Shown: positions 21,947 to 22,017 of the stretch, in pieces
Layout of the letters: every line of letters starts with the position of its first letter
Position numbering within the stretch: the stretch's first letter is position 1
Assembly (NCBI GenBank): GCA_025830695.1
Contig: GCA_025830695.1_4111.2
Origin: a phage
Direction: 5' to 3' (one strand)
DNA: 64,000 nt
The notes under the pieces: generated by a model
What the model was told of the DNA's origin: nothing
What the model saw: the letters and a program-made list of their open reading frames with translations, nothing else
Databases searched by the model: none
Made by a program: the position numbers and the translations under genes

Positions 21947-22017
21947 AAATTCCTCCTTTATTCATTATACTATATTTAATACAAATAAGAAAGCCAGTAC
22001 AGAGTACTGGCATAATG
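21947..22017 (-). promoter_or_regulatory. conserved intergenic cassette of RCC1 array: hairpin GCCAGTAC-nnn-GTACTGGC, AT-rich TATAAT, GGAGG SD
   Basis: Near-identical ~70 nt before paralogs 2-10. Confidence 0.55.

Follow-up and report, generated by a model that had tools for sequence, protein, structure and literature searches.

The DNA analyzed here is a stretch of 64,000 nucleotides (nt) from a phage (assembly GCA_025830695.1, contig GCA_025830695.1_4111.2; hereafter the window), the minus strand of which carries a tandem array of ten RCC1-like paralogs, R1–R10, with a recurrent cassette in the short regions between consecutive genes. We consider it probable that this cassette is a composite module, in which a terminator, a late promoter, a Shine-Dalgarno (SD) sequence and a block encoding the N terminus are combined, and which insulates late transcription units and doubles as a substrate for homologous recombination.

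Conservation of the cassette across the RCC1-like array

The original prediction described, at 21947–22017 between R7 and R8, a hairpin, an AT-rich stretch with TATAAT, GGAGG and the MLPF start, in that order, and this description is correct as to sequence and coordinates (Table 1). Its claim that an identical cassette precedes every paralog was too broad: the full cassette is found ahead of seven of the ten genes (R3–R9), whereas R10 has a degenerate copy, R1 lacks a complete hairpin and R2 has the SD sequence only. Further, the copies vary in the loop, the spacer and the SD flank (81–94% identity for R3–R9). When all ten upstream regions were aligned, conservation was found to begin at the hairpin and to end at about coding nt +45, and neither flank is conserved. 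As had been noted, the cassette and the first codons are conserved far above the gene bodies: the R3–R9 cassettes have a mean identity of 89% and the first 45 coding nt are 80% identical on average among the paralogs, compared with 62% for the gene bodies at the DNA level, for which the shuffled baseline is 61%. Consistent with these values, blastn among the gene bodies of the window returned zero pairs with a match at E<1e-10. The hairpin pattern was matched 7 times (0.01 expected) and a 26-nt promoter-SD string 7 times (0.00 expected), far beyond chance. Overall, the contrast between cassette and gene body is real and large.

The likeness of the cassettes could be a passive relic of recent tandem duplication, with neither selection nor homogenization behind it, as might be suggested by the tandem layout and the regular repeat period of ∼1.2 kb. 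This explanation is hardly credible, being refuted by gene bodies that are at the shuffled baseline and proteins that are 23–30% identical to one another: the duplications are ancient, and neutral spacers would have been randomized. In addition, coliphage EJP2 and the window share orthologs, which show that the paralogs are older than the split between the two, yet the cassettes are genome-specific.

Positions 19400–24500 of the window match Escherichia phage vB_EcoM_CRJP21 at 100% identity and PBECO4 at 99.6%; both phages are members of Asteriusvirus, in the Rak2-like jumbo myovirus group, and infect E. coli. Pfam RCC1, RCC1_2 and WD40_RLD matches were obtained for 10/10 paralogs, public records name the array genes "regulator of chromosome condensation," and the AlphaFold model of a paralog is all-beta (predicted template modeling score, pTM, 0.78), in agreement with a seven-bladed RCC1 propeller. 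In phage phAPEC6, the RCC1-like family is expanded to eleven copies, and a role in DNA condensation has merely been speculated upon (PMC7247149).

The hairpin and the AT-rich box

Neither the T-rich run after the hairpin nor a terminator reading was part of the original prediction. All eight hairpins examined were called terminator-like on the coding strand, with a T-rich run directly 3' of the stem, and the hairpin starts no more than ∼5 nt from the upstream stop codon. The R7/R8-type stem has 8 base pairs (bp), five of them G-C, and a folding energy of −11 kcal/mol; energies range from −9.9 to −12 kcal/mol for the window hairpins and from −8.8 to −15 kcal/mol for those of relatives. The U-rich tract reads TTTCTTATTT or TTTTCTTTTT in the window and T6–T8 in EJP2, Salmonella phage Munch and Klebsiella phage fENko-Kae01 (Kae01). 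In the distant arrays of these three phages, the outer stem is altered by paired substitutions, such that CCAGTAC/GTACTGG is replaced by CTAGTAC/GTACTAG, ACAGTAC/GTACTGT or TCAGTAC/GTACTGA. Across 32 distinct junction hairpins from six genomes, four stem pairs vary on both sides, and the covariation score was 0.173, compared with 0.122±0.012 for shuffles (1 of 500 reached the observed score) and 0.02–0.05 with slid pairing. Further, single-base stem variants are mostly G·U wobbles, which keep the sense fold and weaken the antisense fold (−11.2 versus −6.5 in R9 and −11.6 versus −2.6 in a Munch copy). Terminator labels had been placed independently at such sites by the annotators of phages Munch and G17. 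Overall, the hairpin and its T-run most likely represent a Rho-independent terminator for the upstream paralog, and GCCAGTAC-N3-GTACTGGC together with UUUCUUAUUU would end that paralog's transcript.

The cassette had also been suggested to be an RNA processing site. Either RNase III cleavage, or a protective 3' stem left after an RNase E cut, would then generate monocistronic mRNAs, and both the conserved structure of the coding-strand RNA and the AU-rich single-stranded stretch behind it are compatible with such a role. RNase III needs roughly two helical turns (∼20 bp or more) of double-stranded stem, for which the 8–11-bp stems are too short, and an RNase III site was rejected on this ground. 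Moreover, the U-tract directly 3' of the stem is a terminator signature, and processing would leave the conserved TAAATA unexplained. A known RNA family was likewise rejected, because the Rfam scan of the hairpin returned a chance match only, far under the gathering score (Thr_leader, E=0.98, 23.6 bits versus 55). Termination itself would also leave a stabilizing 3' hairpin, and to that extent the two readings are not exclusive; as an account of the cassette, we regard RNA processing as highly unlikely.

We next consider the AT-rich stretch. TAAATA is invariant in the nine cassette-bearing genes (R1 and R3–R10). In contrast, TATAAT is perfect in R1 and R4–R9 but reads TATAAC in R3 and its ortholog in phage 121Q, is shifted in R10 and is TATGAT in some EJP2 copies; what is conserved 3–4 nt downstream of TAAATA is a TATA(A/T) element. 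No −35 element was detected, and no cassette was among the promoter-like matches in a scan of the window. The position at which a TTGACA-like −35 element would lie (16–18 nt upstream of TATAAT) is occupied by the T-tract TTTCTT, a 2/6 match, and the spacing between hairpin and box ranges from 8 to 14 nt across phages. A canonical sigma70 promoter with TATAAT was rejected because of the missing −35 element and the variable spacing. The per-gene promoter of the original prediction has thus gained indirect support, but its core is probably TAAATA, and the TATAAT to which attention had been drawn is probably not a −10 element.

When the box was scanned over the whole PBECO4 genome, the strict 15-mer was almost confined to the array, and a relaxed form was also present before the tail-tube gene gp020 and the virion genes gp368, gp473 and gp524. 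The possibility that the box is private to the array was rejected, given these four virion genes and the TAAATA core, which is a general late motif. TAAATA lies 20–50 nt upstream of 12 of the 13 head, baseplate and fiber genes examined, several copies being the perfect T4 late consensus TATAAATA, and exact cassette variants occur elsewhere (ATTAAATA before gp543, GGTAAATA before gp540 and TAAATATAGTATA before the tail-fiber gene gp515). Within −70 to −13, TAAATA was found for 13/20 genes of the head/baseplate region, compared with 0/45 and 0/9 in early-type regions, and a reverse-strand control word was found for 0–10% of genes. The array octamers match TATAAATA at 6–7 of 8 positions in the internal cassettes (ATTAAATA or GTAAATA) and at 6 of 8 in R1 (GGTAAATA). 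The layout of terminator, T-run and TAAATA also precedes gp537, gp538 and gp020. PBECO4 gp530 is annotated, by annotation only, as "sigma factor for late transcription"; Pectobacterium phage CBB encodes a gp55-like factor, and an ATAAATA late motif has been predicted for Rak2-like GAP32 and CBB (PMC5259590). Overall, position and sequence suggest that TAAATA is most likely the core of a T4-type late promoter. In the proposed mechanism, (T/G)TAAATA, situated 13–14 nt past the hairpin unit, would be read by host RNA polymerase with a phage gp55-like late sigma factor, and transcription would start within or just past TATAAT to give a leader of ∼20 nt. GGAGG, 5–6 nt ahead of the ATG, is predicted to be a strong ribosome-binding site.

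R1 keeps GGGGTAAATATGATATAAT without a terminator, and the gene that opens the array does likewise in 121Q, EJP2, Munch and Kae01. Because its junction is divergent, R1 must have a promoter of its own. Elsewhere the hairpin and the box mostly co-occur, and the Munch and Kae01 junctions that lack both are those of overlapping or tightly coupled genes. These observations bear on an alternative in which the hairpins are leaky attenuators that grade expression along one long transcript from R1, the AT-rich box being a spacer or a translation-enhancing leader. Such an arrangement would suit R2, which has no cassette and would be co-transcribed with R1, as well as the modest stems (−11 kcal/mol), the rarity of the full 15-nt box elsewhere in the genome and the TATAAC of R3. 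Nevertheless, R1 and the gene that opens the array in the four other phages retain TAAATA in the absence of read-through; hairpin and box are mostly found together; the box agrees with the late motif of the structural genes in both position and variant; and over distances at which the gene bodies saturate, a neutral spacer would not have remained constant between genera. We therefore regard attenuation alone as unlikely and prefer the combination of terminator and late promoter, under which R1–R2 would form a bicistronic unit and R3–R10 would each be an insulated late unit. R2 is read as translationally coupled to R1 because its SD sequence overlaps the R1 stop codon.

In the minimum free energy structures predicted by RNAfold for the cassettes, the SD sequence (AAGGAGG) is paired with the CUUUCUU pyrimidine tract that follows the hairpin; the centroid structure does not contain that pairing. 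If the pairing is real, the SD sequence would be masked in read-through transcripts and free in cassette-started ones.

The N-terminal block, concerted evolution and unit exchange

The N-terminal module is present in ten of ten paralogs. M1, L2, P3, F4, R6, Y10 and N12 are invariant, such that residues 1–12 account for 7 of the 16 columns that do not vary in the alignment of the paralogs. In the AlphaFold model, which was built from a shallow alignment of 8 sequences, the propeller extends from about residue 21, and residues 1–19 are unstructured with a predicted local distance difference test (pLDDT) score of <50. A role for the peptide as a "velcro" strand of the propeller was rejected because of this unstructured segment, and MLPFxRMxxYGN is predicted to be a free extension, not a blade strand. 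In CBB, which belongs to another genus, seven consecutive genes within 350065–356102 start MLPF[SPA][RI]xxxY[GA]N; these are tightly packed, lack hairpin/promoter cassettes, encode products with differing folds and are annotated as virion structural, kelch-like or Laminin_G_3, and one of their products matches a PHROG named "virion structural protein." In PBECO4, the motif is found in the array only. The single RCC1-like protein of GAP32 has been detected in virions (PMC5259590). The MLPF peptide thus appears to be an old protein-level module, separable from the intergenic cassette, and MLPFxRMxxYGN is plausibly a docking or targeting motif of a virion-associated family, which the first ∼15 codons would supply to each member.

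The MLPF motif is absent from the RaK2 depolymerase cluster gp525–534, and a tail-spike anchor common to both was therefore rejected; the RaK2 proteins carry two N-terminal motifs of their own. The RaK2 tail-fiber/depolymerase genes (318000–345809) comprise two sets, 526, 527, 529 and 530 and 531–534, each with one N-terminal motif (M-x-N-x-L-I-Q-P-K-G-S-V-S-K and M-S-L-S-N-L-S); this arrangement of a common N terminus and a variable body is analogous but unrelated.

Cassettes are 90% identical to one another within the window and 85% within EJP2, compared with 70% between the two. Ortholog B of EJP2 and the window is 81% identical in the gene and 73% in the upstream cassette, whereas the B cassette is 84–92% identical to those of its paralogous neighbors. 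Because the cassettes are alike within a genome and diverged between genomes, even ahead of an 81%-identical ortholog, their evolution is concerted. The same signal extends into the first codons: Pro3 is encoded by CCT in 45/48 genes from Asteriusvirus and by CCA in 16/20 from Munch/Kae01 (CCT is used at 29% in the bodies), Gly11 is GGG in 58% (11% in the bodies), and Arg6 is never CGN (43% in the bodies). We read these lineage-fixed synonymous codons as a signature of gene conversion among repeats and the uniform block as the likely product of selection plus concerted evolution; a block of ∼115 nt, recurring every ∼1.2 kb, would be homogenized within the genome by gene conversion.

Ortholog groups, defined at ≥78% nt identity, are arranged S-A-G-B-C-·-D-·-·-K in the window, B-F-A-G-C-H-·-D-I-J-E-K in 121Q and ·-F-A-S-·-C-H-D-I-J-E in phAPEC6, and differential loss alone cannot explain such permuted orders. 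In the comparison with 121Q, the identity of individual window units is 99.8, 98.7, 98.1, 96.3, 94.6 or 89.8%, whereas R1, R6, R8 and R9 lack a counterpart, and the same slots hold different genes. Homology blocks start inside one cassette and end 20–47 nt into the next gene. Orthologs A and E bear a cassette in one genome and are translationally coupled in another, so some crossovers would lie in the SD/N-terminal part. PBECO4 encodes UvsX/UvsY-type recombination proteins, and for general recombination of this type short homology suffices (PMC2839356). The cassettes thus appear to mark where whole gene units are swapped between related phages, and the repeated block would provide the points of gain, loss, replacement and reordering of units, by a mechanism that we infer. 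The proposal that the cassette is a homology arm for shuffling has accordingly received comparative support from concerted evolution and from unit replacement and permutation with boundaries inside the cassettes; the one very recent event that could be resolved, however, is a deletion at a 4-nt microhomology rather than a crossover between cassettes.

A dedicated DNA-level site must also be weighed, at which a phage protein would bind or cut the palindrome CCAGTAC..GTACTGG; the site could be a recombination hot spot, an attC-like exchange site or an operator, and unit shuffling would then be an active process. From genus to genus, the outer stem covaries but the inner AGTAC/GTACT does not change, CCAGTAC hairpins are nearly confined to the array, units are exchanged at cassettes, and no word of the genome is as strongly over-represented as (C)AGTACT(G) (7–12-fold). 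As a hexamer, AGTACT occurs 275 times in the window versus ∼22 expected (z ∼54), 407 versus 59 times in another 210 kb of PBECO4 and 20 versus 2.6 times in 6 kb of CBB, and CAGTACTG occurs 59 times versus 0.9 expected. Its density is 3.5/kb in coding sequence, where it is enriched in all three frames, and 7.6/kb in intergenic sequence; the extended context is T-rich/C-AGTACT-G/A-rich, and GGTACC and TCTAGA are depleted. A literature search for AGTACT enrichment returned no description. The word may impose a DNA-level constraint on the hairpin beside its RNA role. Against a dedicated site, the annotated neighbors of the array include no integrase or recombinase, the outer-stem covariation and G·U asymmetry favor RNA pairing, crossovers are also found in the hairpin-less SD/N-terminal part (R1-R2 junction versus phAPEC6), and UvsX/UvsY-type general recombination genes are present. 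We regard this explanation as very unlikely and retain the composite module with general recombination.

Several observations weigh against the composite module. With an 8-bp stem, a 3-nt loop and −11 kcal/mol, termination may be only partial, and the strand asymmetry of the fold is not uniform, as a hairpin variant common in 121Q and phAPEC6 is slightly better on the antisense strand (−9.9 versus −8.8). The inner AGTAC/GTACT of the stem is invariant save for wobble and coincides with the genome-wide hyper-abundant word; this invariance therefore points to a constraint other than terminator function. The ATTAAATA of the internal cassettes is two mismatches off the T4 TATAAATA, and a literature search for Asteriusvirus transcriptomes or promoter maps returned none, such that transcript ends are inferred only. 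The RCC1 genes carry no structural label in the phAPEC6 record, and the phAPEC6 paper speculates about DNA condensation; virion association of the array family is therefore a prediction. Finally, in SD-15_S21, the closest relative (99% identical), R6 is deleted (window 23235–24380) and R7 and R10 have internal deletions; R6 was lost through a TGCC-to-TGCC junction, a microhomology of 4 nt, and this is the sole very recent rearrangement that could be resolved. Recent crossing over between two cassettes was therefore rejected for this relative in favor of microhomology-mediated and internal deletions.

A bolder possibility, which we put forward as distinctly doubtful, is that the invariant CAGTAC/GTACTG arms are copies of a clade-wide word recognized by a phage protein, and that recombination is programmed to concentrate at the junctions. 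On this view, the array would resemble an integron, as a "cassette deck" of beta-propellers that are expressed late and dock to the virion, with the MLPF peptide plugging any member into the particle. If this were true, the repertoire would be reshuffled between co-infecting jumbo phages, altering host range or counter-defense.

The cassette also bears on annotation. The longest open reading frames (ORFs) at 22018–23235, 26977–28278, 28187–29317 and 29305–30525, as well as PBECO4 gp292 and gp293, start upstream of the true MLPF ATG; such over-long starts translate the cassette (e.g. MPVLCTGFLICIKYSIMNKEG...), or a spurious small ORF is called across it. The longest-ORF starts now listed for several paralogs (e.g. 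22018–23235 and PBECO4 gp292/gp293) are therefore wrong. R6 (23241–24420) switches reading frame at codons 30–59 and R10 (18266–19418) at codons 67–74; because independently sequenced PBECO4 has the same sequence, these frameshifts are probably real, and R6 and R10 are probably genuine pseudogenes or frameshifted genes.

Past the end of the array, an extra CCAGTAC-type hairpin, also present in 121Q, is oriented as a minus-strand terminator and sits between two plus-strand genes (Table 1). A plus-strand gene at 17623–18285 lies between it and the array and overlaps the 3' end of R10 convergently; the hairpin may be a final stop for read-through out of the array. Tandem families of small paralogous ORFs (60–75 amino acids) at 30610–32031 (plus strand) and 33077–34662 lie directly next to the RCC1 array, on the other strand, and 11–13 copies of a 51–55-nt coding motif are present at 55395–60957. 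The neighborhood of the array is a patchwork of paralog arrays.

Table 1. Coordinates of the array, its junctions and related features (window positions unless stated otherwise)
Feature	Position	Strand	Details
Tandem array of ten RCC1-like (beta-propeller) paralogs, R1–R10	18266–30507	−	Every member starts MLPFxR; ATGs of R1–R10 at 30507, 29296, 28116, 26905, 25685, 24420, 23169, 21946, 20695, 19418
R1 upstream region, divergent junction	30508–30575	−	GGGGTAAATATGATATAAT: TAAATA 30533–30538, TATAAT 30524–30529; SD 30513–30517; half hairpin only (CCAGTACTG), without terminator
R1/R2 junction, without cassette	29297–29307	−	8-nt gap; SD GGAGG overlapping R1 stop codon
R2/R3 cassette	28117–28186	−	Hairpin 28162–28180; TAAATA 28142–28147; TATAAC 28133–28138; SD 28121–28125
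R3/R4 cassette	26906–26976	−	Hairpin 26952–26970; TAAATA 26932–26937; TATAAT 26923–26928; SD 26911–26915
R4/R5 cassette	25686–25756	−	Hairpin 25732–25750; TAAATA 25712–25717; TATAAT 25703–25708; SD 25691–25695
R5/R6 cassette	24421–24494	−	4-nt-loop hairpin 24468–24487; TAAATA 24447–24452; TATAAT 24438–24443; SD 24426–24430
R6/R7 cassette	23170–23240	−	Hairpin 23215–23233; TAAATA 23195–23200; TATAAT 23186–23191; SD 23175–23179
R7/R8 cassette	21947–22017	−	71-nt gap between R7 stop (22018) and R8 ATG (21946); hairpin GCCAGTAC-TCT-GTACTGGC 21993–22011; U-tract TTTCTTATTT 21983–21992; box ATTAAATATAGTATAAT; TAAATA 21973–21978; TATAAT 21964–21969; SD GGAGG 21952–21956; then ATG TTA CCT TTT
N-terminal module, first 15 codons of R8	21902–21946	−	MLPFVRMLDYGNKVL
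R8/R9 cassette	20696–20770	−	Hairpin 20741–20759 with G·U wobble (GTGCTGGC); TAAATA 20722–20727; TATAAT 20713–20718; SD 20701–20705
R9/R10 degenerate cassette	19419–19489	−	Hairpin 19465–19483, closing G·U; T7 run; TAAATA 19447–19452 retained; TATAAT overlapping/shifted; SD 19424–19428
Extra CCAGTAC-type hairpin	17587–17610	−	ATCCAGTAC-TTAATA-GTACTGGAT + TTTTTATTAT; ∼650 nt past R10 end
Second composite family	2324, 5749, 7368, 8446, 12950, 14232, 44148, 47845, 50840, 53107	+	
CBB motif genes	639, 1402, 2151, 3003, 3707, 4573, 5254 within 350065–356102 of CBB		

Comparison with known systems

The hairpin resembles intrinsic terminators in its G+C-containing stem of 8–11 bp, its loop of 3–8 nt, its immediate U-rich tail and its place just past a stop codon. 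It differs in that the array re-uses one stem sequence across junctions, with an inner half that is invariant across genera, neither of which terminator function needs. Similarly, the box shares with T4-type late promoters read by gp55 (Geiduschek & Kassavetis 2010, cited in PMC5259590) a putative −35-less, AT-rich −10-type element with an identical TAAATA core, a location 20–50 nt upstream of structural genes and a gp55-like sigma factor annotated in the phage; in the array, however, the octamer is imperfect, an extra TATA(A/T) is conserved, and the starts are predicted from sequence.

As a composite, the cassette recalls the promoter-early stem-loop (PeSL) cassettes of T4-type phages (Arbiol et al. 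2010, PMC2839356; Comeau et al. 2014, PMC4122927). Both combine a small intergenic stem-loop terminator, a promoter and an SD sequence, form dense repeats in a variable region (flanking non-essential genes in the case of PeSLs), and separate genes that are inserted, deleted or replaced between motifs in close relatives, as was found for the array. For both, homology for modular shuffling has been proposed in addition to transcription insulation. In contrast to the array, which has a −35-less TAAATA with the CCAGTAC palindrome upstream and no sigma70-type early promoter, PeSLs carry, as a defining feature, a sigma70-like early promoter (−35 and −10) and have a G/C-tract stem that often overlaps it. 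Further, the array block reaches ∼45 nt into the coding sequence and its cassettes serve one paralogous family, whereas PeSLs flank unrelated ORFans, and mini-circles excised by recombination between motifs are part of the PeSL picture.

The window also contains, on its plus strand, a PeSL-like family of at least 23 copies (35444–53727; e.g. 43456–43512, AAAGTACTTGCAA-N17-GTATAATGTTTTACAT followed by the G/C stem-loop GGGGAGAAATGGTTCTCCCC and an SD sequence), with strong sigma70-type promoters (TTGCAA/TTGACA-N17-TATAAT) before small plus-strand ORFs. A second composite family of ∼11 copies on the same strand consists of a hairpin (GGGTTGAC-TTCG-GTCAGCCC), TTTTT and then (G)CTATAAT; its terminator stem includes the −35 hexamer TTGACT, such that terminator and promoter form a single element. 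To these two families the RCC1 cassette adds a third type, of the late class, and because PeSL-like families are also present, composite cassettes are a general habit of this genome.

Integron attC arrays likewise consist of tandem single-gene units separated by imperfect palindromes, with order and content that vary among relatives. In the RCC1-like array, by contrast, each unit has its own predicted promoter, the hairpin covaries in an RNA-like manner, and general recombination would suffice; no integrase was found in the annotated array flanks of PBECO4, 121Q, EJP2 and SD-15_S21, in which endonucleases are present.

The closest parallel is provided by the internal protein (IP) loci of T4 and the T-even phages (Repoila et al. 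1994, summarized in PMC2839356), which are hypervariable, share promoter/stem-loop elements, exchange variants and place a short conserved N-terminal peptide on divergent or unrelated proteins that enter the virion. The signal of the IPs targets the capsid, is cleaved and differs in sequence from MLPFxRMxxYGN, and the IP elements use T4 early promoters. Because the RCC1-like genes appear to combine a late promoter and terminator of their own with a virion-linked N-terminal peptide and unit exchange at the junctions, the analysis suggests that the family is a plastic, late-expressed and probably virion-associated repertoire, comparable with the T4 IP loci. The idea behind PeSLs, of a regulatory cassette doubling as a recombination linker, is thereby extended from T4-like early genes to a late family of jumbo phages. 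In conclusion, the parts of the cassette are ordinary, whereas their assembly, concerted evolution and unit exchange constitute a new, late-class variation on PeSL/IP-type cassettes.

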